A stretch of 64,000 nt of DNA. Origin: Shigella phage JK32. Below the pieces are notes generated by a model. It was not told the DNA's origin. It did not search any database and saw only the letters and a program-made list of their open reading frames with translations. The stretch is from the sequence record MK962753.1. One strand, written 5' to 3'. Positions 25,582 through 64,000 of this stretch are shown here, piece by piece; position 1 is the first letter of the stretch, and each line of letters opens with the position of its first letter. The translations under genes and the position numbers were made by a program.

Positions 25582-29190
<3,609 letters not shown>

Positions 29191-37396: not shown

Positions 37397-37705
37397 ATGC
37401 ACACACTTATAAAGACCAAAACTCCCGCCGTGTCTGCACCAATTAGCTGCATTCATAGTACCCATATGACGGTACAAATGACAGTTGAAAGTGCTGTACA
37501 AGGGCAAAAAGTTGTCGCAGAGGCTGTTTTAGAAGGTTCTCTCGATGGCAAAGGTTGGTTCACTATTTCAGAATTGAAAGCTGATGGTAATGAATATGCA
37601 ACTGATGGTGGAGCGTTTGAAACATTATGGTCATTTATTCGGGCTAAGGTAAAATCATTATCCAATGGTTCTACCGTAAATGTGTATCTTGCGAAACGGG
37701 GGTAA
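37397..37705 (+). CDS. hypothetical small beta-rich protein (insert gene 1)
   Basis: 102 aa; AAGGGGAG RBS; downstream of the late promoter. Confidence 0.4.
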   Translation: MHTLIKTKTPAVSAPISCIHSTHMTVQMTVESAVQGQKVVAEAVLEGSLDGKGWFTISELKADGNEYATDGGAFETLWSFIRAKVKSLSNGSTVNVYLAKRG

Positions 37706-37708
37706 TGC

Positions 37709-39427: not shown

Positions 39428-39439
39428 TGGGGGTGTATA

Positions 39440-40363: not shown

Positions 40364-40368
40364 TCCTA

Positions 40369-40400
40369 TTGTCGGGGAGAAATCCCCGACAACGTTTTCT
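40369..40400 (+). terminator. rho-independent terminator / attenuator
   Basis: TTGTCGGGGAGAAATCCCCGACAA hairpin followed by CGTTTTCT. Confidence 0.5.
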
Positions 40401-40420
40401 AATATCAACGAGGATATGAT

Positions 40421-42265: not shown

Positions 42266-42294
42266 TTAATTTCATCAACTATAGGGGAATTAAC

Positions 42295-47201: not shown

Positions 47202-49742
47202 TTAAAATAGTTGAGTACCATCAACCAGATAACCATTACGAGATTCCAATACATGAGTATTAGAATAGTGATGCAACGAGGCTGCAATAGTCTCGATCTC
47301 GTCCGGGTATTTGGTGTGTTCAAAGTCTTCTAACCAGTTAAGCCCTTCGCGGTTGCAACGGTCAATTTCATCAAGTACCCAATAGCCTTGATACTGGAAC
47401 GAAGTACGACGCCACGGAATCGGGTGTACATAGCGTTTTAATTTCGCGGTAGTAAACACTACACGAACTTTTTCACTATGTTTAACATGTCCTTCGTCGT
47501 CAGTAACTTCTGCATAATAGGTTGCTTGATGTGTCTCCTTGCTAATTTGTTCTTTAGGAATAGTATACACCTTACTATTCGCGCCAGGAATAACAGTATC
47601 TTTACCGCCCTGAATTTTATGCCACTTCCATTGAACTTCTTTTTCATCATCAACGTGTTCGGCATGAGCTTCTAAGGTAATATCCTGTTTCTGTCCTTCT
47701 TTAGCAACCACATCCACCGGATGTTTCAGAATATTGATATTTGAATGATGAGTCATTGTCACTAATGCAGGATTAGATTCAATGGTATTCTCACCAGCCG
47801 TAATTACCGCTGTGTAGCTGCCTACGTCAGACGGTTTTGCGTGATCAATAATCAACACATCTGAATTTGCACCAGGAATAATTTCACCGTCTTTTTTCCA
47901 TTGATATGATGGTTTAATACCAATAGATGTTTGTGCGGCAGCGTGTAACATAATTTTTTCATTATATTTCACATGCGCATCTTGTGGGTGAGTTGTTATT
48001 GCTAGGTCATTTGGAACAACCGTTACATCGTCGGAGATCAACACCCTAACCGCTTCTGACATTTTAGAAACTCGATGTTCACCGAATCCAGCCGATACAC
48101 GGCATGTATAAACGCCAGTAGATGTTAATTGTGCATGATCTTCGCCATATACATTTCGTTGTTCAATTCCTGCTGGGAAAAGATCCTCACCATCTTTAAA
48201 CCAACGGTAACGAACTGGCAAAGCATCATTAGACGTTGCCTTGATGGTAAGCGCCCATTGTCCACCGGAGCGAACTTTAACTGCTTTCGGTTGTACAGTG
48301 ATCTCTAACGTTGCCTTTGAGTTATCAACTGTCACCTGAACTGCATTAGACTCAGCCGAAATTCTGTGATTCTGGATACCCATAGAAACTTTACATTTAT
48401 ATTGACCTTCGTCTGCTTTAGTGATTGAGGAAAAATGCAAAGTTTTAGATGTTTTTCCAGGAATCAACTCATCATTTTTATACCACTGATAATCAAGTTT
48501 ATAATGTTCGTAGTCTGTCTCTGCTTCACAAATAAGAGTTTGTGAGGAACTAACTCGAACATTGGTTAACTGCTGTGGTTGTTGAGTGATTCGAATTGTT
48601 GGCGCAGCACCGACAAGAAGATCCGCTTCTTGTGATTCTGAAACCATATTATCACCGTAAGTCACTTTTGCTTTATATTTCGCCTGATTTAATTCCGCAG
48701 TTGCTGGTGCAATGTGGAGATCTTTATTAGTTGCGCCAACAATTGGTTTAAATTCATCTTCACCATTTTTCTTGATGTACCATTGAACTTTTACTGGTTC
48801 ATAGTTTGTTGCATAATCAACACTGAACAAACCTAAAGCACCAGCACCCACATTTATTGTGAGTGGTTGTTTAGTGAATCGAAAGAACGATCGACCTTCG
48901 ACTGTAACGTGACAATCTTTTGAATAGATCGTTGTTTCTGCTTGACGAACTTCAAGACGCCATACACCCTCGTCTTTTTTCGTGACGTGGGTTATAGTTA
49001 ATGCAGTGCCGTCTTGATCCAACACCATCCTATCGTTGTGAATCCACACATATGATAAAGGACGAGTTTTGTCATCGGTTGTCACCTGTGCTTGTAGTTC
49101 AAGTCTTCCATCTTCTGGAACTGTAACCGCTGATGGGTAATGTTCCTGAATATGAACTTTAGGAGCATCTTTATTTTGTTCCACTACTACAGGACTGATC
49201 CAATAGTGAGAACGTGCATCATCGGTAACAAATACCTTACAAGTATAGTTGCCAAAATCCTCATAACCAACTCGATCTACATGCACGTTTTTTTGACGGA
49301 TTTTATCTGGATTTAACTGAATGTGGTTTTTATACCAAATAGTATCAAATTGCTTGTTATCTTCGATGAACGGAGTAACAAAAATATCCAATTCTTCGCC
49401 TAAACGCTTATAAATGTAGGTCGGAGATTGATCCTGTGGTGCAAGGAAGGTGCGACGTTCAACAAGAATAGGCTTAATATCAACCGATTCAAGCGGATTA
49501 TCTTTCAGCTTAACTTTCGCTGTATACGTGCCGAATTGATCTTGAGTCATTTCAGCAATATACAGAGATTGATCTGGTTCTGCAACCTGATCTGATGGTA
49601 CGCTTTGACCGTTTAGCTTCCATTCTACGATATAGTCTTTAAAATCTGCGGTACTTACTACGAGCTTAAGAACAAGTTCATGTCCTACAGACGCGTAGAC
49701 CGGACCCATAGTTTGATGTAAAATATTGATTTTATCAGACAT
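47202..49742 (-). CDS. hoc: Hoc-like outer capsid decoration protein, expanded (paralog 2)
   Basis: 846 aa; multiple tandem Ig-like segments; C-terminal LKRYVHPIPWRRTSFQYQGYWVLDEI...ESRNGY Hoc-type domain. Confidence 0.7.
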   Translation of the reverse strand: MSDKINILHQTMGPVYASVGHELVLKLVVSTADFKDYIVEWKLNGQSVPSDQVAEPDQSLYIAEMTQDQFGTYTAKVKLKDNPLESVDIKPILVERRTFLAPQDQSPTYIYKRLGEELDIFVTPFIEDNKQFDTIWYKNHIQLNPDKIRQKNVHVDRVGYEDFGNYTCKVFVTDDARSHYWISPVVVEQNKDAPKVHIQEHYPSAVTVPEDGRLELQAQVTTDDKTRPLSYVWIHNDRMVLDQDGTALTITHVTKKDEGVWRLEVRQAETTIYSKDCHVTVEGRSFFRFTKQPLTINVGAGALGLFSVDYATNYEPVKVQWYIKKNGEDEFKPIVGATNKDLHIAPATAELNQAKYKAKVTYGDNMVSESQEADLLVGAAPTIRITQQPQQLTNVRVSSSQTLICEAETDYEHYKLDYQWYKNDELIPGKTSKTLHFSSITKADEGQYKCKVSMGIQNHRISAESNAVQVTVDNSKATLEITVQPKAVKVRSGGQWALTIKATSNDALPVRYRWFKDGEDLFPAGIEQRNVYGEDHAQLTSTGVYTCRVSAGFGEHRVSKMSEAVRVLISDDVTVVPNDLAITTHPQDAHVKYNEKIMLHAAAQTSIGIKPSYQWKKDGEIIPGANSDVLIIDHAKPSDVGSYTAVITAGENTIESNPALVTMTHHSNINILKHPVDVVAKEGQKQDITLEAHAEHVDDEKEVQWKWHKIQGGKDTVIPGANSKVYTIPKEQISKETHQATYYAEVTDDEGHVKHSEKVRVVFTTAKLKRYVHPIPWRRTSFQYQGYWVLDEIDRCNREGLNWLEDFEHTKYPDEIETIAASLHHYSNTHVLESRNGYLVDGTQLF

Positions 49743-49820
49743 GTAATATCCTCTTTTTTAATTGCATAACGGAACTACAATTAAAAACATAACAAATATT
49801 TCACAACTTTTACACTCTTA

Positions 49821-50546
49821 TTATTTAAGCGTGTGGAATTGGCTGTGTTTAGTCTCTCGCACCTTGACAGACCCATCGCGTTTGATATAATAGATCAGTG
49901 ACTTGAGGGTGTCGTGTACATACGCGTGCGGGAAACGTTCTGGATACTTCTTCCAATCTGGAGTATTAACGATCCAGTCGAAAATCCACCACGGGCAGGA
50001 GTAGTAACCACGACCGCCACCGATCAAGCAAATGGTCGGACGGAAACCAGTAAGATCGCAAAATGAGTCAGTGTCATGTGCTGGGGAACGATGCTCTGCT
50101 TCGTCAGAGAAAATGTTTGCTACCGGAGATTCCGCTTTAACTTCCGATGCTTCTTCAAAATCTAACTTAACTTCTTCGACCACTGGTTCAACTGCTGGAG
50201 ATTCTTCTTTTGTTTCTTCAATGACGATCTCAGGTTCTTTCATTGCTTCAACCAGAGACGGATCAACTTCGTCGAATACCACTTTATCATCTGCGGTGTC
50301 TGCTGCCAGAATAAGATCGTTAATACTGGTTCCCTCTTCTGGGGTTTCTTCTTCCATTTCGGACGCCAGTTTAGTTAATTCGGTTTCTACGAACTCGATC
50401 ATATTCTCTAGCGAGAGCGTCTTTTTGACCTTGATATCAAATTGTTTTGCGTAGTCCGCTAATTCTGTTTTAGCGGTTTTCTGTGCTTCTTTGTCGTCGG
50501 ACGCCGCAATAGCGCGGAGTTCTTCGAAATATTCTTTATCAAACAT
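49821..50546 (-). CDS. acidic protein with Hoc-like C-terminal domain; positional equivalent of T4 inh
   Basis: 241 aa; acidic N-terminal half; C-terminal YSCPWWIFDWI resembles Hoc C-terminal WCGWWVMDEI. Confidence 0.4.
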   Translation of the reverse strand: MFDKEYFEELRAIAASDDKEAQKTAKTELADYAKQFDIKVKKTLSLENMIEFVETELTKLASEMEEETPEEGTSINDLILAADTADDKVVFDEVDPSLVEAMKEPEIVIEETKEESPAVEPVVEEVKLDFEEASEVKAESPVANIFSDEAEHRSPAHDTDSFCDLTGFRPTICLIGGGRGYYSCPWWIFDWIVNTPDWKKYPERFPHAYVHDTLKSLIYYIKRDGSVKVRETKHSQFHTLK

Positions 50547-50572
50547 GTTATTCTCCTGATTGGGGGTGTTTG

Positions 50573-50580
50573 TATAAATA
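50573..50580 (+). promoter_or_regulatory. T4-type late promoter TATAAATA
   Basis: Exact octamer about 22 nt upstream of uvsW. Confidence 0.5.
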
Positions 50581-50601
50581 TTTGTATACTGTATTTATTG
50601 A

Positions 50602-52119
50602 GTGAGGCTATTCGCTATGCAAGATATTAAAATTCACTTTCTGAACTACTCTCATGTTCAAATTGAATGTAGCGATTCAATTTTATTAGAAATGCGAGAT
50701 TATTTTAGTTTTGAAGTCGAGGGAGCGCGGTTTCAAAAAAGATTTAAGTATGGTGGATGGGATGGGCGTATTCGTCTTTTAGATTACAATGGAAAGCTGC
50801 CAATCGGCCTAACTAAAACCGTGGGAATCTTCGCTAAAAATATGGGCTATAGCGTATGGGTAGACCCTCGCTTATTCGAAAAAGAACAAGTTACAGAAGA
50901 AGAAATTACAAAATGGTGTAATGATCTGGAATTATATTCCGGTGCTAACAGGATCACCCCGCATTGGTATCAATCAAAGGCTGTCTTTGAAGGTATTCAT
51001 CATAAACGCCGTATGTTAGTTTTGCCTACGTCCGCTGGTAAATCTGCGATTGCTTGTATGTTGTCTCGCTGGTACTTAGAGAACTACGAAGGGAAAGTGC
51101 TGATCATCGTTCCTACCACGTCGCTAGTGCTGCAAATGCGTGATGATTTTGTTGATTATCGCCAGTTTCCTTATGAAGCAATTCATACTATCATGAGCGG
51201 TACTAGTAAACACGTAGGTGATCGCCTGATCGTTGTTAGTACATGGCAATCTGCATGTAAACAGCCTCGTGAGTGGTTCCAACAATTTGGGATGGTAATT
51301 GTTGATGAATGTCACAAGGCCACTGCTAAAAACCTGCTAAACATCGTTACTGATATGGATCATTGCCAATTTAAGATCGGCATGACTGGTTCCCCTCGTG
51401 ACGGGAAAGCTAACATGATGCAGTATGTCGGGCTTTTCGGTGATATTTCTAAGATCGTGAGTATTGACCGCCTGATGGAAGAAGGTCAAGTGACAAAACT
51501 GAAAATTAACTGTCTTTTCCTTCGTTATACCGATGAGGAATGTAGCGCGGTTAAGGGGAGAGAATATGCGGAAGAGATCAAGTATATTACATCTAACCCA
51601 CGACGAAATAAGTTTGCTTGCAATTTGGCGCTAAAACTCGCTAAGAAGGGCGAAAACGTATTCCTTATGTTCCGCAATACTAAGCACGGAAAACTTATGT
51701 ATGACGCGTTACAGAAGGTACACGACAAGGTTTATTATATTGACGGTGGAGTTAAGACAGAAGAACGTGATGAATTTAAGAAAATGGCGGAGGGTGACAC
51801 CGGGATCATTTGTGTTGCGTCTTATGGTGTGTTCTCTACTGGTGTTTCCATCAAGAACTTGCACCATGTTATTTTCGGGCATCCAGTTAAAGAATCAACC
51901 ATTGTTAGACAGAGTATCGGTCGTGCATTGCGTAAACATGGTTCTAAGGATATTGCTACCGTTTGGGATCTTATCGATCATTTGGCGGTTAAGACAAAGA
52001 GCAAGAATGCTAAGAAACAGTTTAGCCACCTTAATTATGCTCTTAAACATGCGCTTTTGAGGATACAGCTTTACAATACCGATAAATTTGAGTATGCTAC
52101 CAAGACTATAGAAATCTAA
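50602..52119 (+). CDS. uvsW: UvsW DNA/RNA helicase
   Basis: 505 aa; collinear with T4 UvsW (PTSAGKS Walker A, DECH box, HFLNYSHVQIECS N-terminus). Confidence 0.9.
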   Translation: MRLFAMQDIKIHFLNYSHVQIECSDSILLEMRDYFSFEVEGARFQKRFKYGGWDGRIRLLDYNGKLPIGLTKTVGIFAKNMGYSVWVDPRLFEKEQVTEEEITKWCNDLELYSGANRITPHWYQSKAVFEGIHHKRRMLVLPTSAGKSAIACMLSRWYLENYEGKVLIIVPTTSLVLQMRDDFVDYRQFPYEAIHTIMSGTSKHVGDRLIVVSTWQSACKQPREWFQQFGMVIVDECHKATAKNLLNIVTDMDHCQFKIGMTGSPRDGKANMMQYVGLFGDISKIVSIDRLMEEGQVTKLKINCLFLRYTDEECSAVKGREYAEEIKYITSNPRRNKFACNLALKLAKKGENVFLMFRNTKHGKLMYDALQKVHDKVYYIDGGVKTEERDEFKKMAEGDTGIICVASYGVFSTGVSIKNLHHVIFGHPVKESTIVRQSIGRALRKHGSKDIATVWDLIDHLAVKTKSKNAKKQFSHLNYALKHALLRIQLYNTDKFEYATKTIEI

Positions 52120-52130
52120 TGATACAAAAA

Positions 52131-52150
52131 TACCCCGCGCTATGCGGGGT
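52131..52150 (+). other. GC-rich hairpin without T-run
   Basis: ACCCCGCGCTATGCGGGGT between uvsW and the following ORF. Confidence 0.4.
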
Positions 52151-52167
52151 ATGGAGGAAAGAAAATC

Positions 52168-53253
52168 ATGGAACTTGTATTTGCTAAAGATATAGAATTT
52201 GTAAAGAAAACAAACAATAAGTCCCCTCAATATTATGAAGACCTTATTATCAAACGCTGTGCTGATCTGAAACTTAACTTTGATGGATTTATTCTTCCGT
52301 GGACTGGTGCTAAGACTAAATTAATTATATCAAATCCAGAAAACGGTTTGACACAGACAATAAATGTTAACAGAATGATAACTTCTACAAATCCAGGTGA
52401 CAAACTAAAACGAGCAAATGAATTGCACTACAAGTCAGAAGCAACAAAATATCTGTTAAACGCTGGTCTTGAATTTATTGGTTGGAATGGGGAATATAAT
52501 AAAAGTAATTCTCTGTCTACATGGTGCGACGCTAAATGTTTGATTCATGGAACTACTCATCGATATTTATTGCGAACTATAGTTCAGCATAAAGATATGG
52601 TAAAGACAAAATGTGTTGAATGTTATCGGATCAATGAATTGACGGAAAAATACGGTAGTGTTGATGCAGCAATAGAAGACCAAGAAAAGCGAGTTTTCGA
52701 TATTGTTTCTAAGTTGGGGTATGAAATAAAACATTTCACTGGAGACCGATTGAGAGACAGCGAAACTGATGTAGTTCTATATTGCCCTAAACATGATGTT
52801 GAGTTTAGTCGAAATGTTTGCGACCTGGTTTATAAGAAATTTGTATACTGTCCTACATGCATTTCTGTTAATAAAGGAATGAGAAGTGGAATAATCCATT
52901 CCTCCAATATAGGGGCATCTAAACCGACTTCAATCTATTTGCAAAATTTGAGCGATAAGTTTTGTAAGTTTGGCGTTAGCGTTCGCCCAAAAGTTAGGAT
53001 GTATGAGCAACAAAAAGTTTCTCAATATAACCACTCTCTTGTGTATGTTCACACTTTCGAAAAAGGCTGGATGGCTGCCGATGTGGAATATGGGATAAAA
53101 CTTAACTTTAAAGGGCGTGGTGCTAGCCCTACAGCCGTTCCTGATGGGTATACGGAAACGAGAGATATTAGTATGCTCGATAGTATAAAACAGTTTATAG
53201 AAAACTATATAAGAGAGAATCCAGAAAATCCTCTATACCTAACAGAAATTTAA
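52168..53253 (+). CDS. Cys-rich protein with possible degenerate GIY-YIG/T5orf172-like motif (candidate free-standing endonuclease)
   Basis: 361 aa; several Cys pairs; C-terminal SIYLQNLSDKFCKFGVSVRPKVR resembles a GIY-x(10)-YIG pattern; flanked by hairpins. Confidence 0.3.
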   Translation: MELVFAKDIEFVKKTNNKSPQYYEDLIIKRCADLKLNFDGFILPWTGAKTKLIISNPENGLTQTINVNRMITSTNPGDKLKRANELHYKSEATKYLLNAGLEFIGWNGEYNKSNSLSTWCDAKCLIHGTTHRYLLRTIVQHKDMVKTKCVECYRINELTEKYGSVDAAIEDQEKRVFDIVSKLGYEIKHFTGDRLRDSETDVVLYCPKHDVEFSRNVCDLVYKKFVYCPTCISVNKGMRSGIIHSSNIGASKPTSIYLQNLSDKFCKFGVSVRPKVRMYEQQKVSQYNHSLVYVHTFEKGWMAADVEYGIKLNFKGRGASPTAVPDGYTETRDISMLDSIKQFIENYIRENPENPLYLTEI

Positions 53254-53258
53254 TAAAT

Positions 53259-53284
53259 AGGGGCATATAGCCCCTATATTTTTA
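53259..53284 (+). terminator. rho-independent terminator
   Basis: AGGGGCATATAGCCCCT hairpin followed by ATATTTTTAC. Confidence 0.55.
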
Positions 53285-53298
53285 CGGAGATTAAAATA

Positions 53299-53538
53299 AT
53301 GAGTATTAGCTTTAAAAGATTCCTTGTAGAAGCGGTTATTGATGGTTTCATGAATAAAATCTATTCTTGTAATACTATGGAAGGTTTGGACGAGCTTGAA
53401 AAATATTATGAAAAGCGCAAGAAAGAGACCGATCTCAAACCGTCAGATGATATCTCTATTCGTGATGCAATAGCAGGTCGGAGAAAACAGTTAGAGAGTG
53501 AAAACGAGCCGGAGGAGGAGCCGGAAGAGGATTTTTAA
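53299..53538 (+). CDS. hypothetical small acidic protein
   Basis: 79 aa with acidic tail EPEEEPEEDF. Confidence 0.35.
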   Translation: MSISFKRFLVEAVIDGFMNKIYSCNTMEGLDELEKYYEKRKKETDLKPSDDISIRDAIAGRRKQLESENEPEEEPEEDF

Positions 53539-53553
53539 TAAATCATCGGATAC

Positions 53554-53580
53554 AAAAAAAAGCCCCATCAATGATGGGGC
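53554..53580 (-). terminator. rho-independent terminator for the uvsY-side operon
   Basis: GCCCCATCAATGATGGGGC hairpin with T-run on minus strand. Confidence 0.55.
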
Positions 53581-53618
53581 AAACAAAACCAATTAAAATC
53601 GGTTATCAACAAATTCCT

Positions 53619-53810
53619 TTAGAGAATCAAAGTAGTTTCTACCAGTTGTTCTTGTTCTTCTGCACTTGATTCGCTCAAATGATTCCGGTTTGCAAATTCT
53701 TCGCAATATCCCGGATGAACAACATGATTTTCGATTTTAACAGCCAACGCCATTTCGACTGGCTGTTTACATACAGCACAAATACAAGTCATAAATCCTT
53801 CCTCCTGCAT
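53619..53810 (-). CDS. hypothetical small Cys-containing protein
   Basis: 63-aa ORF with CxxC and HxxxC; downstream of uvsY as are the small uvsY.-1/-2 ORFs in T4. Confidence 0.35.
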   Translation of the reverse strand: MQEEGFMTCICAVCKQPVEMALAVKIENHVVHPGYCEEFANRNHLSESSAEEQEQLVETTLIL

Positions 53811-53822
53811 ATATTTAGTGTC

Positions 53823-54245
53823 TTACTTTCCAGACTCAAGCATACGCAACTCTATAGCATTCTTGATCGCGAATCCTCGCGATTTGATTATATCAAGAGC
53901 CTTGCCAGCAAAATCCATAACCATTTGATAATAAGCAATTTTTGTGTCCAATGGTAGGATATCATCATCTGCCGCCATCACAACTTTCAATTCTGATGTG
54001 GCGTACTCAACTCTACACCATTCATCACTACGATTAGTGTAAAAGTCAAGTTTATTTTTTGTGGCTTTCTTTTTCTTTGCTTCCAGCGCAATGATCTCGC
54101 GCTTTGCTTCACTATACACACGAAGCCATTTAGAGTAAACTACAGGGTTATTAAGTGCTTCCCATTGTAGCTTTGTTGCGTCGATCTTGACGTCAGCGTC
54201 AAGCTGGTCTTTGAGTTCATTCAGGTCCATAGTAAAACACCTCAA
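53823..54245 (-). CDS. uvsY: UvsY recombination mediator
   Basis: 140 aa; C-terminus DIIKSRGFAIKNAIELRMLESGK closely matches T4 UvsY. Confidence 0.85.
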   Translation of the reverse strand: MRCFTMDLNELKDQLDADVKIDATKLQWEALNNPVVYSKWLRVYSEAKREIIALEAKKKKATKNKLDFYTNRSDEWCRVEYATSELKVVMAADDDILPLDTKIAYYQMVMDFAGKALDIIKSRGFAIKNAIELRMLESGK

Positions 54246-54632
54246 TCATTTAGACAATCTAACTCTAAGTTGTTCTAACTCATCTGGATTGTCTATAACA
54301 GAAAAATAAACCGTTACGATAATCGAGTTCTCATCATACTGCGGAGTTACGTCTACGTCAAGCCTTTTTACTCGTGGTTCGTAGTTTCTTATCGATTCTG
54401 TGATATTCTTAGACAAGGTATCCACAGTCAATGGGTTGATGTTTTCGAATAGTGCGCGGTTTAGATCACATCCAAAGTTAGGATCAAACGGGCGAGATCC
54501 CTTAGCCGTGGTTATGATCAGCAATATGGAATCTTTAACCGCTTTAATCCCTGTGTTCTTTTTAATATCGTTGTTCCATGCTCGCTTAAACTCTAGATTT
54601 AAGTCAGTGTACATCTGGTTAACTGTTGTCAT
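54246..54632 (-). CDS. 25: baseplate wedge protein
   Basis: 128 aa (T4 gp25 about 132 aa); synteny. Confidence 0.75.
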   Translation of the reverse strand: MTTVNQMYTDLNLEFKRAWNNDIKKNTGIKAVKDSILLIITTAKGSRPFDPNFGCDLNRALFENINPLTVDTLSKNITESIRNYEPRVKRLDVDVTPQYDENSIIVTVYFSVIDNPDELEQLRVRLSK

Positions 54633-54639
54633 AACTACC

Positions 54640-55278
54640 TCAAAGGATCGTCAGAAATTCATTAAGACCCCTGATCGAATGAATACCGGACTCCCCGCAC
54701 TCACACTTGATCGGCACTGCCAGTGTGATTTGTGGTCCTGTCAACTCATCGATGATAGTCTCTACATGTTCTGTTGTCAACATGCTTAGTATGGTGTCGA
54801 AGTCTTGCTCGTTTAGGTCATTAATATCAAATTCCTGATTATCTATGACAATATAATCAATACAAGCAATTACCATCTGCATGATATCGTCATCTTCTGT
54901 AAAACGCGGAGGACGGAATTTAATTTTAACCCCTCCTAAATCTAACAGATATGGTTCTGTGTCTGGGATCTGTGTCCGTTCAACGTTAAGATTGTATTCT
55001 TTCTCTTTGTTACATACTCCACACACCCACGTAGATTTGAAATTTTCTTTTGCTAGGCTATGACACCATAGCATAAGGAATAGATATTCAGCCTCGCACT
55101 TCTCTAGCTCTAATGCGTTAATTCCTGTACATTCATTGATAATGTCTAATACCGCTTCCTTAAGACGTCCAGTGCTCTTATATTCTACTAATTTTTGAAA
55201 TTCTTCATAGGTGAATGCTCTAGCGGTGATCGTCTTATCACCTAACTTGATCTTGAAAATATGTTGCATAGTATACAC
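54640..55278 (-). CDS. 26: baseplate hub protein
   Basis: 212 aa; divergent from gene 51 as in T4. Confidence 0.6.
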   Translation of the reverse strand: MYTMQHIFKIKLGDKTITARAFTYEEFQKLVEYKSTGRLKEAVLDIINECTGINALELEKCEAEYLFLMLWCHSLAKENFKSTWVCGVCNKEKEYNLNVERTQIPDTEPYLLDLGGVKIKFRPPRFTEDDDIMQMVIACIDYIVIDNQEFDINDLNEQDFDTILSMLTTEHVETIIDELTGPQITLAVPIKCECGESGIHSIRGLNEFLTIL

Positions 55279-55311
55279 CTCTTATGATACATAGAAATTA
55301 TTTAGTATTTT

Positions 55312-55319
55312 ATAAATAC
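55312..55319 (+). promoter_or_regulatory. T4-type late promoter TATAAATA
   Basis: Exact octamer about 19 nt upstream of gene 51. Confidence 0.5.
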
Positions 55320-55338
55320 CCGAAAGGGGGATTGTATT

Positions 55339-56112
55339 ATGAATGTTATACGAATTAAAATGCCAGATGGCGGGGCTAAACGTTTTAAGCCATTCACTGT
55401 AAAAGATTATCGTGATTTTCTTTTAGTTTCGGCTGATATGAAAGGCAATCCATCGGAGGAACAACTGATTCTGGATGAATTGCTGGAGGAATTATACCCT
55501 GATGTGGACCCGATATTCCGAGAATATATTTTCCTGAACGTTTTTACTAGCTCAATAGGCAAAACAAAATTACCACTTTCTTTTAAGTGTCCAACCTGTG
55601 GTAAGGAAAAACGAATACTGTTAAACCTTGCTGTTCCGGCACTGCAACCAATCGTCCTAGAAACGGCTGGGCTTAAAATTAAGTTTAAGTATGTGAAACC
55701 ATCAAGCGACTACGCAAAAACGTTTCTAGAAGCTATTGAGAGCGTTTCTGACGGTGATCATGAGTATGTATGGACCGAATTGCCGGAGGAAGTGCGCGAT
55801 CAGGTTATAGATTCGATATCCTTCGCAGAATTTGAAACCATAGTAAAGAAAATGCACACCATTTTGATTGAGCAGAAGATCAAATGTTGTGATACACACG
55901 AATTAAGATATACTGATTTGTTGGGGTTATATAAACTAATCCTTAATCCAGATGAGCTTTTTACTTTTTATAGGATTAATCATTTGCTTGTAAAAAGTAG
56001 TTATACGTTTGGTGATCTAATGGATATGTTGCCAGTAGAAAGAAATATCGCCCTAACATTAGTAGAAAAAGACGTTAAAGAGGCAAATAATGCAAAGACC
56101 CGGATTTCCTAA
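55339..56112 (+). CDS. 51: baseplate hub assembly protein
   Basis: 257 aa; synteny. Confidence 0.6.
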   Translation: MNVIRIKMPDGGAKRFKPFTVKDYRDFLLVSADMKGNPSEEQLILDELLEELYPDVDPIFREYIFLNVFTSSIGKTKLPLSFKCPTCGKEKRILLNLAVPALQPIVLETAGLKIKFKYVKPSSDYAKTFLEAIESVSDGDHEYVWTELPEEVRDQVIDSISFAEFETIVKKMHTILIEQKIKCCDTHELRYTDLLGLYKLILNPDELFTFYRINHLLVKSSYTFGDLMDMLPVERNIALTLVEKDVKEANNAKTRIS

Positions 56113-57199
56113 CGTCTCTATAAAGCTATATCAGGACTATGAAGCATTTTTGGAAAATAGATTTGTTGAATTGGGAGCAACCTTCATTACAATGACATTA
56201 CGAGATTCTCTTCGTGGTGTCAATGAAGGTCTACTACAGATCTATGATTCTAAGGCGCTTCATACGAAATTAGCAGGAACAGAGATTATACAAATTTCAT
56301 TATCAACGGCTAATACTGAACAAGTATTCAACCGGATATATGGTATCGCGCATAGTAATGTGACCGTTGACTCTAAGGCCGATAATATAATAACCTTCCA
56401 GTTAAAGAGCTACCATGAAACGCTGAATCTAAAGTTTTCTCGCGCTACCGACACTAACGCGATGAATAACATCACCAGTATGATAGACGCGATCTATAAG
56501 AATGTTCCCTTGTGGAAACCTACCATTACAGGAGTAAACGTATTCATTCCTAAGTGTCCGTGGGTTAGTACCGTCAATGACTATTTTGAATATGTGAGAA
56601 CACATGGTCAGAGTGTAGACAACGAATCGTTCGTTTACTGTTGGGAAGACTTTGACGGGATCAAGATCACCGATCATAAACTACTAATGCAGGGTGATCC
56701 AATTCCTGCTATCGTCACCGAGCCTACCCTAACAGGACAATTCATGGATATGAGCGAATATTTGATGGTGTTTAACTTTGAGTGGGATACTAAGAGTAAT
56801 GCGGTAACAAAAAACTCATTCGCTAATGTCACTTACACAACAATTGATTTCATCACGAAGCAGTATAACAAGATTGTAGTGGGTAATGGTGATAACATAG
56901 CTCATTTTGCACATGGTGGTGCCTATGGTAATTTGACATATAAAAACGCGTATCTTGAAGGTTCTAAACTGGCAACTTTTGGACAATTTGATTCCTATGC
57001 CAGCGCGGTGTGTCATGGTAATTTCTCTCTACGTCCGGCACAAAAGCTAAGATTCTTTGATGCTAAACAGCAAATTCGCACCGACTTTATTGTCGATGAA
57101 GTTGTTCATGAAATTTGTCGAGAACAATCATTAACACATATTCACATGTTTAGTCATAGTGAGATTTTGAAAGATGTACAATTTGAAGGTAAAATGTGA
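56090..57199 (+). CDS. 27: baseplate hub protein
   Basis: 369 aa; synteny. Confidence 0.65.
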   Translation: MQRPGFPNVSIKLYQDYEAFLENRFVELGATFITMTLRDSLRGVNEGLLQIYDSKALHTKLAGTEIIQISLSTANTEQVFNRIYGIAHSNVTVDSKADNIITFQLKSYHETLNLKFSRATDTNAMNNITSMIDAIYKNVPLWKPTITGVNVFIPKCPWVSTVNDYFEYVRTHGQSVDNESFVYCWEDFDGIKITDHKLLMQGDPIPAIVTEPTLTGQFMDMSEYLMVFNFEWDTKSNAVTKNSFANVTYTTIDFITKQYNKIVVGNGDNIAHFAHGGAYGNLTYKNAYLEGSKLATFGQFDSYASAVCHGNFSLRPAQKLRFFDAKQQIRTDFIVDEVVHEICREQSLTHIHMFSHSEILKDVQFEGKM

Positions 57200-57717
57200 T
57201 GACTGATACTAAACCATCTCTAAAATTTGTTGTTCCTGTTAAAAATATTACCGTTAACGGGAAACATATCAAGATCCCTAAAATGGGGATCAAACAGCAC
57301 AGATTATTAAAAGATGTTCGTAGCTGTGAAGAGACTTTAAAAATTCTACTTGATTCCATTCACCCAGGACTAAATGCAGCCGAAGCAGAATATGTTATGC
57401 TTCACTTATGCTCTTTTAATGGCAAATGCCTAGAAGAAAAAGATGGTTTGCGATTGGATGATGTTTATATCTGTACAGAATCGGAGTTTGAATTTAATGG
57501 CGAGAAATTCAAGTTCACGCCTCCTATGCTCTCTTCTGAATATACACATGATGATGCAAATTTCCTAAGCAATCACTATCACGATCCTAGTGTAGACTTT
57601 CATAAATTCCCAGCGTTTATTATGAATTGGGCTACAGGATTAAGAAAAACCGTTGCCTTAGATACTCCAGAAGGTACTATCTATGGTGGCATTAACATAT
57701 TGGATCGCCTATCATGA
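57196..57717 (+). CDS. 28: baseplate hub distal protein
   Basis: 173 aa; synteny. Confidence 0.6.
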   Translation: MMTDTKPSLKFVVPVKNITVNGKHIKIPKMGIKQHRLLKDVRSCEETLKILLDSIHPGLNAAEAEYVMLHLCSFNGKCLEEKDGLRLDDVYICTESEFEFNGEKFKFTPPMLSSEYTHDDANFLSNHYHDPSVDFHKFPAFIMNWATGLRKTVALDTPEGTIYGGINILDRLS

Positions 57718-59393
57718 ATGACACATTAACATCATTTCGCGGAATGCGTAAAGACGCAGAAAATGATCCGCTTGATAAATTAGAAAAATTGGACAAACTA
57801 GATTCTATTGATAATCTTCAAGCTGCAAGCGAATTGGTAGCAGAGACAGTAGAACAAAAATCTAATGAAGTTATTGGAGCGGTGGAGGATAACACCGCCG
57901 CCAACGAATTAACGGCAGAAAACACACAATCAACTGCTGGTAATACTCAAAAAACCTATGAAGAATTGCAGAAGTTGAACAGCTTTTCTTCTCAGATGAA
58001 TGAGAAATTACGCGGTTTTGGTGTTATGATGGAACGTAGATTCAGCGTAGTTTCTAAGATCACCAGTGGTCTTGATGCAATTGAAAAGGCCATCAAGGAT
58101 GAGAAACAGCCGGAACAAACTATGCCATCACCGCAACCAGTTTTGCCGAGTGTACCGGAACAACAAAATAACGATAACTACCCTACGTTACCTAAGAAGC
58201 CTAAAGACGATAAGAAAAAGAAAGATAAGAACAGCGACCGTGACAATAATATGCAAATGCTAATAAAAGCGGTTCGCGGTGGATTTAAAGAGACTGTTGG
58301 TGTATCCAACAAGATATTCTCTATGCTGTTTAAAATGACCGTAACTGCATTGCTGGAAGTTGCCAAATGGGGAGCTATTCTTCTGGGGATCGTTGTTGCT
58401 ATTGATACTCTTATGATTCATTTTAGATACTGGAGCACGCAGTTTAACGAGAACTTTGGCGGGTTTATGAAGAAGGCCGGAGGATGGGGTACATCACTAA
58501 CAAGTATTTTAGCTAGTGTTGACGCGATTAAAGATTTTTGGGCTAAAAAACAATATGGTGATCTAGTTTGGGAAATTGTTAAAGGCATCGGTAAATCATT
58601 AAAAGATGCATTCTTCCAGTTAGATAAAATTGTCACTCAAGGCGTAGCGTCTGTATTGCGAACTATTCCTATGATGGGTGATGTTGCTGATACTATGGAA
58701 TATAACGCGCTAAAACAAGCTAAAGAGCATGGTGGATATAAACTTACACCAGAAGAAAATAAACTTTATCTTCGTAAGAAAAAAGAAGAAGATATGGAAA
58801 AAGGTAAACTTGCTAAAGCTAAATTAGCCGTTGAGAAATATAATCAGCCTTTGGGGATGCAAACAGAAATTTTGTTGTCGCCCGAAGAACAAAATGCTGT
58901 AGATAGATATGAAGAATTGAAGTCTGTGAGTGAGGAAAAATATTTGCGTAGTGGTGCTATTACTAGCGATGCAGAATCTGACTTAAAAAGAAATATTTCT
59001 ATGTTGGATTCGCTTAAGCCAAACTTACATGACAAACAGATTGCCGAACTTGATGCTAATGTAAATGAATATCGATCTTTGGTTAATGATGACTCATTGC
59101 TTTCTACTGATCGCAGAATGATTCAGGATCTGCTTAATCGTTATGACAAACTTCGTGCGGATAAAAACGCTAAGGTAACAGTAACCGCGCCTCCACCGGA
59201 TGAAACCGATACAGCAAAACAAGCAACGGCAATAGAACAGGGGCAATTACAGAATATCAGGAATGATAATTCTATTTCTAATACAGCCAACGTTGCAAAC
59301 ACGCAGATCTATAACAATAATAGAACGGTGCAGATAACACGGCCTCAAACTAGTACGCCTTCTCCCGGCCTATTACAGAAAGGAATAGTTTAA
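57714..59393 (+). CDS. 29: tail tape measure / baseplate hub protein
   Basis: 559 aa, helical, low-complexity; synteny. Confidence 0.65.
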   Translation: MNDTLTSFRGMRKDAENDPLDKLEKLDKLDSIDNLQAASELVAETVEQKSNEVIGAVEDNTAANELTAENTQSTAGNTQKTYEELQKLNSFSSQMNEKLRGFGVMMERRFSVVSKITSGLDAIEKAIKDEKQPEQTMPSPQPVLPSVPEQQNNDNYPTLPKKPKDDKKKKDKNSDRDNNMQMLIKAVRGGFKETVGVSNKIFSMLFKMTVTALLEVAKWGAILLGIVVAIDTLMIHFRYWSTQFNENFGGFMKKAGGWGTSLTSILASVDAIKDFWAKKQYGDLVWEIVKGIGKSLKDAFFQLDKIVTQGVASVLRTIPMMGDVADTMEYNALKQAKEHGGYKLTPEENKLYLRKKKEEDMEKGKLAKAKLAVEKYNQPLGMQTEILLSPEEQNAVDRYEELKSVSEEKYLRSGAITSDAESDLKRNISMLDSLKPNLHDKQIAELDANVNEYRSLVNDDSLLSTDRRMIQDLLNRYDKLRADKNAKVTVTAPPPDETDTAKQATAIEQGQLQNIRNDNSISNTANVANTQIYNNNRTVQITRPQTSTPSPGLLQKGIV

Positions 59394-59394
59394 T

Positions 59395-60441
59395 ATGAAA
59401 ATTAAAATTTTGGATGATGCTAATGACGCCTTAAAAAAAGGCGTCAAAGCGTCTGCTGGGTTTACTCAAAAACAAGACAAGTCAACTTTAACCGCTCAAT
59501 TTCCATCTGAACGAGCTAGCGGTAATGATTCGTCTGGTATATACATAAATGACCTTTATAGTAATGGCTTGTTGTTTACTGCCTATGATTATAGAGAACG
59601 TGTTACTAGTTCTCTTCGTGATTTTAGAAATGAGCACAGTACATTACGTGGATTTGGTGCGAATGGGAAAATAGGGTCAAAAGATTTTTATAAAACATCG
59701 TTTGACCGTGATGCTGTTGCTAATATCCTGCTTCCTCGTAGTCAATCAGATGTTGATGCGGTAAGTCACAAGTTTAATGATGTTGGTGAATCTCTCGTTA
59801 CTCGTGGTGGTGGTACTATTTCTGGTGCATTATCTGCTATGGCATCGACCGCAGTATTTGGTGGTTTGGAAAGTTTGACAGGTGGTTATCTTGCGGATAA
59901 AAACGAGCAGATCTATAATACCGCTCGTAGTATGTATGCTGGGGCAGATCCTAGAACTAAAAACTACGTCTGGCACTTAACCCCACGTAGTATTGAAGAC
60001 CTGCGAAATATCCTGATTATCTATGAAACGTTTGTAGAATTGTCTTATGGATCTAGTGGTATTTCCAGTACCGCAAAACAATTAAAAGCGGAAGTTGATG
60101 CATGGTATAAAAAGACAATTCTTTCTAAAACGGTTCCAGAAGGTGCTGATACAACGGGTACTGTATTTGAGGGAATAACTGACTTTTTGACAAACGTAAC
60201 CACTGTGTCGAATCCTACTATATGGATGGTCTCAAATTTCGGTAAGAGATCTGCTTATGAGGGACGTAATGACTCTTTCGGACCAGCGCAGATCACTAAC
60301 GTAAGACTTGATAAATCACCAGATGGTAAATTTGGTGGCCTGGCAATATCTCCTAACTTACCGAGTACCTTTGTTTTGGAAGTATCGTTTAGGGAGATTC
60401 TTACTCTTTCCCGTGGTACTGTATTTGGGAGTCAATTATAA
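59395..60441 (+). CDS. 48: baseplate-tail tube junction protein
   Basis: 348 aa; synteny. Confidence 0.65.
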   Translation: MKIKILDDANDALKKGVKASAGFTQKQDKSTLTAQFPSERASGNDSSGIYINDLYSNGLLFTAYDYRERVTSSLRDFRNEHSTLRGFGANGKIGSKDFYKTSFDRDAVANILLPRSQSDVDAVSHKFNDVGESLVTRGGGTISGALSAMASTAVFGGLESLTGGYLADKNEQIYNTARSMYAGADPRTKNYVWHLTPRSIEDLRNILIIYETFVELSYGSSGISSTAKQLKAEVDAWYKKTILSKTVPEGADTTGTVFEGITDFLTNVTTVSNPTIWMVSNFGKRSAYEGRNDSFGPAQITNVRLDKSPDGKFGGLAISPNLPSTFVLEVSFREILTLSRGTVFGSQL

Positions 60442-61370
60442 TGTTTGATTTAAATGATTTCAACGAACAAGCCGCTAATCTAGACTTTCAGCGATCTAAT
60501 CTATTTTCGGTGGCGTTTGCCACCGTTCCTAGTAGCAAGACACAGCAAATTCTAGAAAATTTTGGTGGTGCTATTCATGATATTATACCTGGTAAATTAA
60601 ATGATTATTTTGGTATTACAGAGGGTGATTATACCGATGCCGTAACAAATTTGGCTATACATGGAGTGCGTAGAGCCGTTACATCGTCCGGTGTCAAAAA
60701 GTATCTTTTAGGTGCAATGTCATCCCGCGTAGTTCAATCTCTTCTGGGGCAATTTGAAGTTGGTACATATGTCATGGATTGGTTCAATATGGCATATAAG
60801 ACAAGCGGTTTGATGGTATATGCTGTTAAAGTTCCAGAAAACCGATTGAGTTATGAAATGGACAGAAACCACAATGCGCCTAACATTAGAATTACTGGAC
60901 GTGATTATGACCCGTTGATTCTTAGCTTTAGAATGGACGCTAGCGCGTCTAATTACAGGGCGATGCAGGATTGGGTTAACTCAGTAGAAGACCCCGTTAC
61001 AGGGCTTCGTGCGCTTCCTGTTGACGTTGAAGCAGATATTCAGGTCAACTTACATAACCGAATGGGAGTTCCTCACACGATCATGATGTTTAATGGTTGT
61101 GTTCCTGTTGGTGTGAGTTCCCCTGAATTAAGCTATGAAAATAACAACGAAATCACAACATTCGATGTTACTTTTGCGTATAGGACTATGCAAACTGGTG
61201 CTGTAGGAGAGCAAGCCGCGCGAGAATGGATTGAGGATAAGGCAATAAACCTGATTCAAAATACTATTGGTGATGGTACATCTGGATCGTTGACCGCTGC
61301 TGGTAGTGCGTTATCTCGCCTACAGGGTGTTGGTGGTAGGATAGTTAATTCTATTACTAGGTTGTTTTAA
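60441..61370 (+). CDS. 54: baseplate-tail tube initiator protein
   Basis: 309 aa; synteny. Confidence 0.65.
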   Translation: MFDLNDFNEQAANLDFQRSNLFSVAFATVPSSKTQQILENFGGAIHDIIPGKLNDYFGITEGDYTDAVTNLAIHGVRRAVTSSGVKKYLLGAMSSRVVQSLLGQFEVGTYVMDWFNMAYKTSGLMVYAVKVPENRLSYEMDRNHNAPNIRITGRDYDPLILSFRMDASASNYRAMQDWVNSVEDPVTGLRALPVDVEADIQVNLHNRMGVPHTIMMFNGCVPVGVSSPELSYENNNEITTFDVTFAYRTMQTGAVGEQAAREWIEDKAINLIQNTIGDGTSGSLTAAGSALSRLQGVGGRIVNSITRLF

Positions 61371-61374
61371 TGTT

Positions 61375-61397
61375 AAAAGGGGCATTGCGCCCCTTTT
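61375..61397. terminator. bidirectional rho-independent terminator
   Basis: AAAAGGGG-CATTGCG-CCCCTTTT hairpin between convergent gene 54 and the lipoprotein gene. Confidence 0.6.
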
Positions 61398-61399
61398 AA

Positions 61400-61912
61400 T
61401 TAATTTAGTATATCTTCACACTGTTTACGCAGTTTATACCGGTATTCTTTAGAACTCAGCAATTGAACTTTTTCATAATCTCCAGACTCATATGCACTTG
61501 ACAGGTCGTCTTGATATGCTGCCTCTACCCCGATTCGACAAATGTCATATTTTCGTGCTTTCTTCAAGTCCAATTGTTCTCGCTCAAACTCTTTTCTTCT
61601 TTTCTCTAAATCTTCCTGATAGCTCTTATTTCTGCGATCTATCTTATCTTGAATCTCTGCGATTCTTTGTTGTGCTTCTTGTGGTAGTCCTATACGCGCT
61701 GCTGCCTCATCTTTTTTCTGTAGCATATCAATCACGCAATGTTCAGGGTCTTGATATACAAATTGCTTGACTTGCGAATGATTGTACCATTGAACACAAT
61801 ATTCTTCAACTTGCTGTATTGATGCTGTTGCGACTCGATAATCTTTTAACCCAGCGCACCCATTAAGCATAGCCACTAAAGCCGCAAGACCAATCAGTTT
61901 AATAATTTTCAT
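61400..61912 (-). CDS. putative lipoprotein
   Basis: 170 aa; signal peptide with lipobox LNGC; start overlaps the stop of the upstream ADP-ribosyltransferase gene. Confidence 0.5.
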   Translation of the reverse strand: MKIIKLIGLAALVAMLNGCAGLKDYRVATASIQQVEEYCVQWYNHSQVKQFVYQDPEHCVIDMLQKKDEAAARIGLPQEAQQRIAEIQDKIDRRNKSYQEDLEKRRKEFEREQLDLKKARKYDICRIGVEAAYQDDLSSAYESGDYEKVQLLSSKEYRYKLRKQCEDILN

Positions 61913-62742
61913 TTAGTCACCTCACCGAAAATTGTAAATTGTCTACGATTCTCATCGCCGAAGGATTCTACTACGTCGTTTACCTTTATGCAAGTCCCGC
62001 GCGGTAAAATTACTTCACATTCGCAAGGATTCCACGCAATCGACCCAACAACAAAACCTTTATGATCTTTTACATCAATTACCCATGATACATTACAAGA
62101 ATGTTGCATCTTTCCGGTCATCGATTCATATCGATTCTCACAATAAAGGCTAGTGCTGTTTGAAAGCCATCCTCCAAAAATGATCGGTGTCATGCTGGTC
62201 GACACAAAGTTTTTAAAGGTAAATTCCTTATCTTCAATAATACGCTCTATTGTTTGAATGTCAAGATGTTGACCACGATAAAGAGTACCGTTTAACTTTT
62301 CGGTTTTATCCATGACACAATCCATCAAATCGACAATCTCTGATATCTCGTCGGTCATGTCTTCCTCGCCTAAGAGAGCACCATTTACCCATTCGTATTG
62401 TTCAGACACATAATCACAGATTGCATTATATTCTGCTGGGGTTATGTTGTTATGTTTGTAATATTTGAATACATTATCTCCAAAATCTTCGGAGTGTACT
62501 TCATACATCACATTAATGATTTTCTTGACAAATCCATAATCTTGTGTCTCTCGCTCAAGGAAGCGGATAATCTTCACATAATCATCAAAGTTAATCTGAT
62601 CGCTGATCATCTCAGTGATCATGTAACCATTAATCCCCTCAATGCCATATGTTTCGATGTAATTATCCATACGTTCCATCATTGATTCGCGTGAATCTTC
62701 TGAAAGACGAAAATCCTGTAATTGTTTGAACATTTTGAACAT
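61909..62742 (-). CDS. mono-ADP-ribosyltransferase (R-S-E type, Alt/Mod-like), paralog 1
   Basis: 277 aa; motifs LYRGQ, FVSTSM, ECEVILPRG. Confidence 0.6.
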   Translation of the reverse strand: MFKMFKQLQDFRLSEDSRESMMERMDNYIETYGIEGINGYMITEMISDQINFDDYVKIIRFLERETQDYGFVKKIINVMYEVHSEDFGDNVFKYYKHNNITPAEYNAICDYVSEQYEWVNGALLGEEDMTDEISEIVDLMDCVMDKTEKLNGTLYRGQHLDIQTIERIIEDKEFTFKNFVSTSMTPIIFGGWLSNSTSLYCENRYESMTGKMQHSCNVSWVIDVKDHKGFVVGSIAWNPCECEVILPRGTCIKVNDVVESFGDENRRQFTIFGEVTK

Positions 62743-62755
62743 TTTAAACCTCCCA

Positions 62756-62794
62756 TATAACAGAAAACGGGGCTAGTATAAAACTAGTCCCCGT
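62756..62794 (-). terminator. hairpin terminator / attenuator
   Basis: AACGGGGCTAG...CTAGTCCCCGTT hairpin with moderate T-run on minus strand. Confidence 0.4.
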
Positions 62795-62820
62795 TTGAGT
62801 CAACCATTATTTCTTAAAAA

Positions 62821-63939: not shown

Positions 63940-64000
63940 GAAACCATAGCGAGTGATAATATCACTTGTCCAGTCATTCAGAGAACGAGCGGTTGAACGT

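Follow-up and report, generated by a model that had tools for sequence, protein, structure and literature searches.

A probable T5orf172-class free-standing homing endonuclease gene between uvsW and uvsW.1 in Shigella phage JK32

The 64,000-nucleotide stretch of Shigella phage JK32 analysed here (MK962753.1; the window) comes from a Krischvirus (RB49-like, Straboviridae) and encodes, immediately after uvsW, a 361-amino-acid (aa) open reading frame (ORF) at 52168–53253 (+) with an ATG start. We conclude that this ORF is probably a selfish, mobile, free-standing gene for a homing endonuclease that is active or has been so recently; the enzyme would be of the T5orf172 class, which forms one branch of the GIY-YIG superfamily. 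Close relatives have or lack it at a single position between conserved genes, a polymorphism expected of homing genes, and its product is, with high confidence, a T5orf172-class nuclease with zinc-finger DNA-binding modules. The first-pass annotation had described the ORF as a candidate mobile nuclease gene, and the comparisons support that proposal: homologues of the protein reach nuclease-family profile thresholds, and few relatives have the ORF at this junction.

A megablast search with positions 50602–54300 matched 58 phage records. Phage Whisky (MZ504878), in which the same start codon is annotated, is the only one of them that spans the full query (97.4% identity); the remaining records give two-piece alignments that cover 67–68% of the query and skip the ORF. 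In a tblastn search with the protein, Whisky matched at 99% identity and everything else at less than 60%. A protein with 99% identity to that of the ORF is encoded, in the same Whisky-like arrangement, on a 1.44-kb metagenomic Logan contig (run ERR2184201), so that the ORF is found at the uvsW/uvsW.1 junction in one of 58 phage records and in one metagenomic contig. In T4, uvsW and uvsW.1 are adjacent, with nothing between them.

When aligned with the empty sites of RB49 (NC_005066, ~102,500–103,100), G37-3, PTE-Eco09 and AV108, the window shows an insert of 1134 bp, whose ends are an 11-bp imperfect direct repeat. The empty sites read ...GA(G/A)ATT-TAA-TAAATAGGGGC...GCCCC...TACGGAGATTAAAAATG, that is, the uvsW stop codon, a terminator, and the ribosome site and start of uvsW.1, and this architecture is the same in two allele classes that are only ~72% identical to each other. 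The gene directly 5' of the ORF, at 50602–52119, is recognized as uvsW by its Pfam UvsW_N, ResIII and Helicase_C domains. The insert and its junctions contain the following features:

52110–52120 (+): left copy of the direct repeat, AGAAATCTAAT, which holds the uvsW stop codon (52117–52119); from the sequence and the empty-site alignment
52153–52157 (+): Shine-Dalgarno sequence GGAGG, 10 nt from the ATG of the ORF; from the sequence
53244–53254 (+): right copy of the direct repeat, AGAAATTTAAT, an exact match to the uvsW end in empty PTE-type sites
53299–53538 (+): uvsW.1 (Pfam UvsW-1, E 5.8e-22), placed 1134 bp further from uvsW by the insert

The right copy of the repeat differs from the uvsW end of RB49 at one position, and the final two codons and stop of the ORF (...GAA ATT TAA) are a copy of the uvsW end. 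The right joint probably lies inside a formerly longer reading frame, since the closest full-length homologues run ~40 residues past a shared PLYL motif. The G+C content (GC) of the insert is 0.36, compared with 0.407 for the window, and GC at third codon positions (GC3) is 0.28 in the ORF and 0.40 in uvsW; by these measures the insert is compositionally foreign. A search for a paralogue of the ORF within the 64-kb window found none. Between the window and Whisky, 19 codons of the ORF differ, 16 of them synonymously and three non-synonymously, and the gene is, judging from these substitutions, under purifying selection.

Among the empty-site relatives, uvsW of G37-3 (MK327941) contains 186 extra bp (positions 2396–2581 of its locus sequence, L003). 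These were considered as a possible remnant of an insert, an idea that was rejected: they are a tandem duplication of uvsW sequence, unrelated to the ORF. The duplication carries a 2-bp deletion that creates a stop codon, which makes it a pseudogene or an assembly artefact.

The assignment of the protein rests on its family. The Pfam scan of the full ORF gave only a CapR homology match (PF21817; E 1.2e-4, 22.6 bits against a cut-off of 24.2), and no N-terminal GIY-YIG (PF01541), SegE_GIY-YIG or HNH match, but the protein matches PHROG 681, annotated as 'endonuclease', over aa 14–353 with an E value of 1.6e-36. A word-indexed protein search returned only four matches; when 1.84 billion representative proteins were searched exhaustively with a profile, 8,738 relatives had E ≤ 1e-3, of which 120 had E ≤ 1e-30. 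Pfam domains in 81 family members were CapR (76 proteins), DUF723 (27), DUF4379 (25), MUG113 (23) and T5orf172 (15); DUF4379 is labelled 'probable treble-clef zinc finger'. The closest distinct homologue, P0008, is colinear with the ORF and 39% identical to it, and exceeds the cut-offs of both MUG113 (25.4 bits) and T5orf172 (21.8 bits) at aa 255–318, a segment aligned with aa 253–317 of the ORF. When the C-terminal domains of 29 colinear homologues were scanned in isolation, MUG113 was matched by 22 (best E 2.5e-6), T5orf172 by 13 and GIY-YIG by two. The ORF is thus homologous, over the same residues, to proteins above the thresholds for T5orf172 (PF10544) and MUG113 (PF13455), both of the GIY-YIG clan. 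In the profile searches, which had been proposed as a check on the first reading, nuclease-domain matches of the ORF itself are below threshold (MUG113 E ~0.1) and the family link runs through homologues above it.

The residues conserved in this family are kept in the ORF. K267, G269, R277, E307, G327, E330 and T331 are invariant in both the colinear and the domain alignments; Y257 is invariant in the domain alignment and nearly so in the colinear one; S285, H289 and G300 are nearly invariant in both, and D326 in the colinear alignment only. The C-terminal stretch SIYLQNLSDKFCKFGVSVRPKVR, which had been likened to a degenerate GIY-YIG or T5orf172-type motif, holds four of these residues (SIY257LQNLSDKFCK267FG269VSVRPKVR277) and, because they are conserved across the family, represents the family core motif. 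Its Tyr-x10-[F]-x-Gly and Gly-x7-Arg spacings are those of GIY-x10-YIG and of R27 in I-TevI, and on the basis of spacing Y257, K267-F-G269, R277 and E330 may correspond to I-TevI Y6, Y17/G19, R27 and E75.

The AlphaFold2 model, built from a 30-sequence alignment, has a mean predicted local distance difference test score (pLDDT) of 90.4 and consists of three alpha-beta-beta-beta-alpha modules, a disordered linker and a C-terminal domain:

52225–52392 (+): module 1, aa 20–75; CapR-like fold with Cys/His ligands lost; Pfam CapR match, model pLDDT 85–98
52420–52632 (+): module 2, aa 85–155; predicted zinc ligands C124, H127, C149 and C152, from alignments and model
52660–52872 (+): module 3, aa 165–235; predicted zinc ligands C206, H209, C228 and C231, from alignments and model
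52924–53217 (+): C-terminal nuclease domain, aa 253–350, with Y257, K267, G269, R277, H289, E307, G327, E330 and T331

The modeled C-terminal domain has the topology beta-beta-alpha-beta-alpha-(loop)-beta-alpha and includes the beta-beta-alpha-beta-alpha core fold of the GIY-YIG superfamily. The cysteine pairs that had suggested zinc binding belong to zinc-finger modules of the CapR/DUF723/DUF4379 type, of which the protein has three in tandem. Two of the three retain the Cys-x2-His ... Cys-x2-Cys ligand set, with C124, C149 and C152 nearly invariant in module 2, and with C206 invariant and C228 and C231 nearly so in module 3. In module 1, the ORF and its closest subfamily have ...IISNPENG... 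in place of ...C..HG...C..C. A Foldseek comparison with viral models (BFVD) gave 201 matches at E ≤ 1e-3, and the named neighbours are 'CapR homology domain-containing', 'GIY-YIG', 'T5 Orf172' or 'zinc-ribbon' proteins. The whole-model comparison with the PDB gave weak matches to tandem double-stranded RNA-binding domains (R2D2, TARBP2 and NF90; E 9e-4, probability 0.41, TM ~0.1), which were set aside; this resemblance may reflect only the topology of repeated alpha-beta-beta-beta-alpha modules and not homology.

The sequences flanking the ORF are mosaic. Within uvsW (50612–51700), the window is 94–99% identical to RB49 and 60–86% identical to PTE-Eco09/AV108; at 53395–58450 these values are 59–86% and 90–100%, respectively, and from 61854 the window is RB49-like again (96.7% identity). 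In other comparisons of these regions, uvsW is 97–99% RB49-type, and 53395–58450 is 95–100% identical to PTE-Eco09 and AV108 and 65–80% identical to RB49. Since the allele type switches at the ORF, an allelic block of ~8 kb has its left edge there. Two flanking features are involved:

52053–52109 (+): last 19 codons of uvsW, a divergent patch tied to the insert; from a site-by-site comparison
53245–61360: PTE-Eco09/AV108-type block of ~8 kb, with uvsW.1, uvsY.-2, uvsY and genes 25, 26, 51, 27, 28, 29, 48 and 54

At 52053–52107 the window is the same as Whisky and differs from RB49 at 18 positions, most of which differ from PTE-Eco09 too, with five amino-acid changes in the last 19 UvsW codons relative to RB49; the 50 bp upstream of 52053 are RB49-type. 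We regard 52053–52109 as a candidate immunity or co-conversion patch that may be part of the target region. A second patch common to the window and Whisky (51784–51822) has nine differences, and at 51849–51990 the window alone differs from both Whisky and RB49. All of these patches fall within the final 350 bp of uvsW, the two shared ones being donor-type and the third strain-specific. Directly right of the insert, Whisky is near-identical to the empty PTE-type site, and changes specific to the window are clustered there. Over 49711–64000, the window is 97.3% identical to Whisky, compared with 89–95% elsewhere, which makes the ORF-bearing block the part shared most closely by two otherwise different phages. 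This mosaic fits the pattern of nuclease genes at 'boundaries of genetic exchange' and in 'HEG islands' (HEG, homing endonuclease gene; PMC10448857) and matches the co-conversion known for free-standing endonucleases of T4 (PMC2988022). The boundary and the patches at the gene are suggestive of homing co-conversion, although they do not prove its cause.

The start of uvsW.1 in the window (53296–53330) has an extra codon (MSISFKRFLVEA versus MISFKRFLAEA) and a cluster of substitutions; these changes adjoin the insert and are seen in none of Whisky, PTE-Eco09 and AV108.

In PTE-Eco09 and AV108, the same allele type reaches left through uvsW and starts at a SegE-type gene between inh and uvsW, which encodes 243 aa and lies at 2217–2948 of the locus sequences of both phages (L004 and L005); the PTE-Eco09 copy matches SegE_GIY-YIG (E 2.5e-8) and GIY-YIG (E 8.8e-6). 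It is conceivable, and we put it forward as a tentative reading with the odds against it, that uvsW of Krischviruses has a selfish nuclease gene on one side in some lineages and an unrelated one on the other side in others, each at the left edge of the same allele: the SegE-type gene upstream (PTE-Eco09, AV108) and the T5orf172-type gene downstream (the window, Whisky). The allele in question would comprise ~8–10 kb from uvsW.1 to gene 54, a recombination and baseplate-hub module.

Two hairpins were noted on either side of the ORF by the first-pass annotation, and both are present and stronger than expected by chance:

52130–52152 (+): left GC hairpin, ATACCCCGC-GCTAT-GCGGGGTAT, with a 9-bp stem and 5-nt loop; not in empty sites
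53257–53277: right hairpin, ATAGGGGC-ATATA-GCCCCTAT, followed by ATTTTT; a terminator-like site on the + strand spans 53257–53284

The 66-nt context of the left hairpin folds at -18.3 kcal/mol (z = -3.6), with none of 200 shuffles as stable; the fold of the right hairpin has z = -2.55. The right hairpin/terminator is in the same place in every relative examined (RB49, G37-3, PTE-Eco09 and AV108) and is, on this comparison, the ancestral uvsW terminator, outside the insert. Because it is found at empty sites too, only the left hairpin arrived with the insert, which corrects the description of the ORF as hairpin-flanked. The left hairpin has no T-run after its stem on the + strand; its T-run is on the - strand, the only strand on which the consensus scan found it terminator-like. 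Transcription by read-through from uvsW is accordingly probable. The sole nearby T4-type late promoter motif, TATAAATA, is at 50573–50580, upstream of uvsW. None was found directly upstream of the ORF, and independent late transcription of the ORF was rejected for that reason. In the minimum-energy fold, moreover, the AUG of the ORF is paired with the region of the uvsW stop, which could provide translational coupling or restraint. An Rfam search around both hairpins gave nothing above noise.

The hairpin loops at 52139–52143 and 53265–53269 differ between the window and Whisky (CTATG versus CATAG, and ATATA versus TATAT), which amounts to an inverted loop centre in both hairpins with the stems unchanged. 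A further hairpin, GCCCCATCA-A-TGATGGGGC at 53562–53580, lies between uvsW.1 and uvsY.-2, with runs of A and of T on its opposite sides (- strand reading); it resembles a bidirectional terminator and is kept in all relatives examined.

These features can be assembled into a model of homing. The ORF would be transcribed by read-through from the uvsW late promoter across the upstream hairpin. In co-infection, the zinc-finger modules would bind a long asymmetric site in a genome without the gene, at or near the uvsW stop, the terminator and the start of uvsW.1, and the GIY-YIG-type domain would cut there, with Tyr257 and Arg277 as likely catalytic residues and Glu330 as the likely metal-binding one. 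Recombination-dependent repair by the phage would then copy the gene and its flanks from the carrier into the cut genome. The carrier itself would be protected by the insert, which splits the site, and possibly also by the rewritten last 57 bp of uvsW. Repeated rounds of this process would leave patchy flanks and a switch of allele.

Several observations weigh against a homing endonuclease. For the T5orf172 genes as a class, homing has not been shown experimentally for any member (PMC10448857). At the level of the protein, the full-length Pfam scan gave no T5orf172 or MUG113 match at E ≤ 10, the isolated C-terminal domain scored 13.6–13.9 bits with MUG113 against a cut-off of 22.3 (E 0.08 to ~0.1), an NCBIfam scan of the ORF returned noise only, so that no nuclease threshold of either Pfam or NCBIfam was reached, and sequence searches of the PDB returned nothing relevant, whether run with the protein or with profiles of the full family and of the C-terminal domain. 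The ORF could also be a truncated form, as it is devoid of the acidic tail of ~40 aa that is found in its closest homologues (P0002, P0008, P0009, P0012, P0013, P0026, P0027 and P0029), several of which end in ...DLSPLEAL. The idea that the empty junction is a conserved island marking the target site was dropped, since its conservation between allele types is only modestly higher than that of the flanks (82–90% versus 58–90%). Mosaic breakpoints can form in T4-like phages in the absence of any nuclease. Finally, no cleavage site, target or mobility event is seen in these data, and, as all carriers hold the gene at the same locus, movement of the ORF is inferred from one insertion and from mosaicism.

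The partial homologue P0002 adjoins a serine recombinase gene, a context that is uninformative.

The same observations bear on three other accounts of the ORF. It might be a decaying homing-endonuclease remnant or a foreign gene that entered through illegitimate recombination at the 11-bp microhomology, the allelic breakpoint being a coincidence. Microhomology at both ends of the insert, the subthreshold domain matches, the degenerate first zinc module, the missing tail and an ORF end copied from uvsW would all suit such an inactive passenger, which we nevertheless consider improbable: all family-invariant residues are retained, synonymous changes outnumber non-synonymous ones by 16 to 3, and the model predicts a confident fold (pLDDT 90). 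The degenerate module 1, moreover, is common to a whole subfamily of full-length proteins, and most family members are tail-less. Loss from an ancestral gene content is a different matter; although the terminal direct repeats could mediate precise deletion, an ancestral Krischvirus gene would have to have been lost with the same precision in 57 of the 58 records, across two allele classes ~72% identical, and uvsW and uvsW.1 are adjacent in T4 as well. The foreign GC3 (0.28 versus 0.40) and the position of the nearest relatives (≤39% identity) outside sequenced Krischviruses also contradict this explanation, which we regard as very remote.

The purifying selection that disfavours a passenger suits a useful function just as well as an active homing gene, and the protein could be a domesticated relative, a sequence-specific DNA-binding nuclease or repressor directed against a competing phage, satellite or host DNA, which does not copy itself. 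Domains of both the CapR and T5orf172 types have been co-opted in this manner in ICP1/PLE, as CapR and Odn (PMC10448857, PMC8096241), and every known copy of the JK32 gene is at one locus. On the other side, rarity in close relatives, a site between conserved linked genes, a rewritten flank and an allele breakpoint are signatures of selfish insertion; a PADLOC search found no defence model that matches the ORF, and the ORF has intact nuclease residues, whereas CapR has no nuclease domain. Domestication thus seems to us rather unlikely, and a free-standing homing endonuclease gene remains the explanation that we favour.

Other parts of the window also differ from relatives. The large terminase gene is fractured (26076–29187, +). 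The ORF at 26076–27827 encodes the N-terminal part of TerL (Terminase_6N positions 5–106, ending ...IYIDE), followed by a segment that starts like an intein N part (CVSGLTKV...), then by a stretch rich in Cys and by a TnsA-like / PD-(D/E)XK endonuclease (PF08722, E 3e-8). In the overlapping ORF at 27808–29187, the first ~105 aa end in ...VESHN|C, after which TerL resumes at Terminase_6N position 107 and continues into Terminase_6C. The arrangement resembles a 'fractured gene' of the split-intein kind in which an endonuclease is nested; Whisky is missing 1285 bp of this region (26841–28126). Between the major capsid gene and gene 24, ~4.9 kb (37405–42294) have no counterpart in RB49 or Whisky and contain ORFs at 37709–39427 (no Pfam match), 39440–40363 and 40421–42265, the last of them rich in Ala/Thr/Glu repeats and fibre-like or coiled-coil in appearance. 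The Hoc-like ORF at 47202–49742 (-) encodes 846 aa, compared with 404 aa in RB49, and 47320–49711 in this region has no blastn match to RB49 or Whisky.

The ORF at uvsW is otherwise the expected kind of element and a clear, fairly ordinary case. T5orf172-class genes are abundant in phages and their homing is assumed (PMC10448857); as it is unproven for the class, the locus is a convenient test case both for homing and for the exchange of large blocks of structural genes. It belongs to a well-studied, tractable group of coliphages, has a clean insertion site and a sharp allele switch at the gene, and natural partners without the gene exist for both the left flank (RB49) and the right flank (PTE-Eco09 or AV108). 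Should the T5orf172-type gene have driven the block into its RB49-type surroundings, homing of this class would have its first tractable Escherichia coli system here, and the same locus would also show long-range 'HEG island' co-conversion. In terms of annotation, a 'hypothetical protein' of Whisky gains a specific prediction.

Among known systems, the closest counterparts are the T5orf172 homing endonuclease genes with CapR/DUF723/DUF4397 zinc-finger repeats described in ICP1 (gp165, gp174 and others; Barth, Dunham & Seed 2023, PMC10448857), which also occur in T5-like, Plateaulakevirus and VpaJT-like phages and of which T4 has none. Like these genes, the ORF combines N-terminal CapR-type zinc repeats with a C-terminal T5orf172/MUG113 domain, varies among close relatives, and is located beside essential or conserved genes at a boundary of genetic exchange. 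Unlike them, it is found in a T4-like phage of the Straboviridae, has a module 1 without zinc ligands, and has Pfam scores of its own below threshold. Besides the Whisky protein, sequenced phage proteins are at most ~33% identical to it. Paralogues in Krischviruses and T5 include RB49p240 ('RB49ORF238c-like'), T5p137, with CapR and DUF4379 matches, and proteins designated 'endonuclease' in RefSeq in Phi1, ECD7 and GEC-3S. By tblastn they are of the same family (E 1e-9 to 1e-24 over 75–96% of the length, 23–28% identity) and in Krischvirus genomes their genes lie at ~64 kb and ~139 kb, in T5 in the tail gene cluster, none of them at uvsW/uvsW.1.

The resemblance to other characterized proteins is partial. 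Odn, the origin-directed nuclease of ICP1, has a T5orf172 nuclease domain that depends on a conserved Glu (PMC10448857, PMC8096241); it shares this domain with the ORF but binds DNA through a RepA_N domain, and its target is a satellite origin. CapR of PLE shares the zinc-finger DNA-binding domain but is a repressor without a nuclease domain. With the GIY-YIG (URI) domain of SLX1 and At-HIGLE (PDB 7wme, 6seh and 7cq2), there is fold-level resemblance only (11–15% identity), and those proteins are eukaryotic structure-specific nucleases that have a RING domain and no CapR modules.

The first-pass annotation had pointed to the seg/mob genes common in T4-like phages and placed T4 segD near uvsW. 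The ORF belongs instead to the T5orf172 class, which is absent from T4 (PMC10448857), and the T4 neighbour of uvsW is segE, between inh and uvsW, segD being located between genes 23 and 24 (PMC2988022, Table 1). T4 SegE is a free-standing GIY-YIG homing endonuclease that cleaves uvsW (Kadyrov et al. 1997, tabulated in PMC2988022), and the SegE-type gene of PTE-Eco09/AV108 occupies the same position and opens their divergent block. The ORF resembles T4 SegE as a free-standing gene of the GIY-YIG superfamily that flanks uvsW, with non-reciprocal exchange of the uvsW region, but it lies on the other side of uvsW and has no detectable sequence similarity to SegE. SegE has a canonical N-terminal GIY-YIG domain and a C-terminal DNA-binding region, whereas the ORF has the reverse order and zinc-finger repeats. 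What is specific to the ORF is its site between uvsW and uvsW.1, an unusually clean breakpoint, and an unrelated endonuclease gene across uvsW in phages with the alternative allele.

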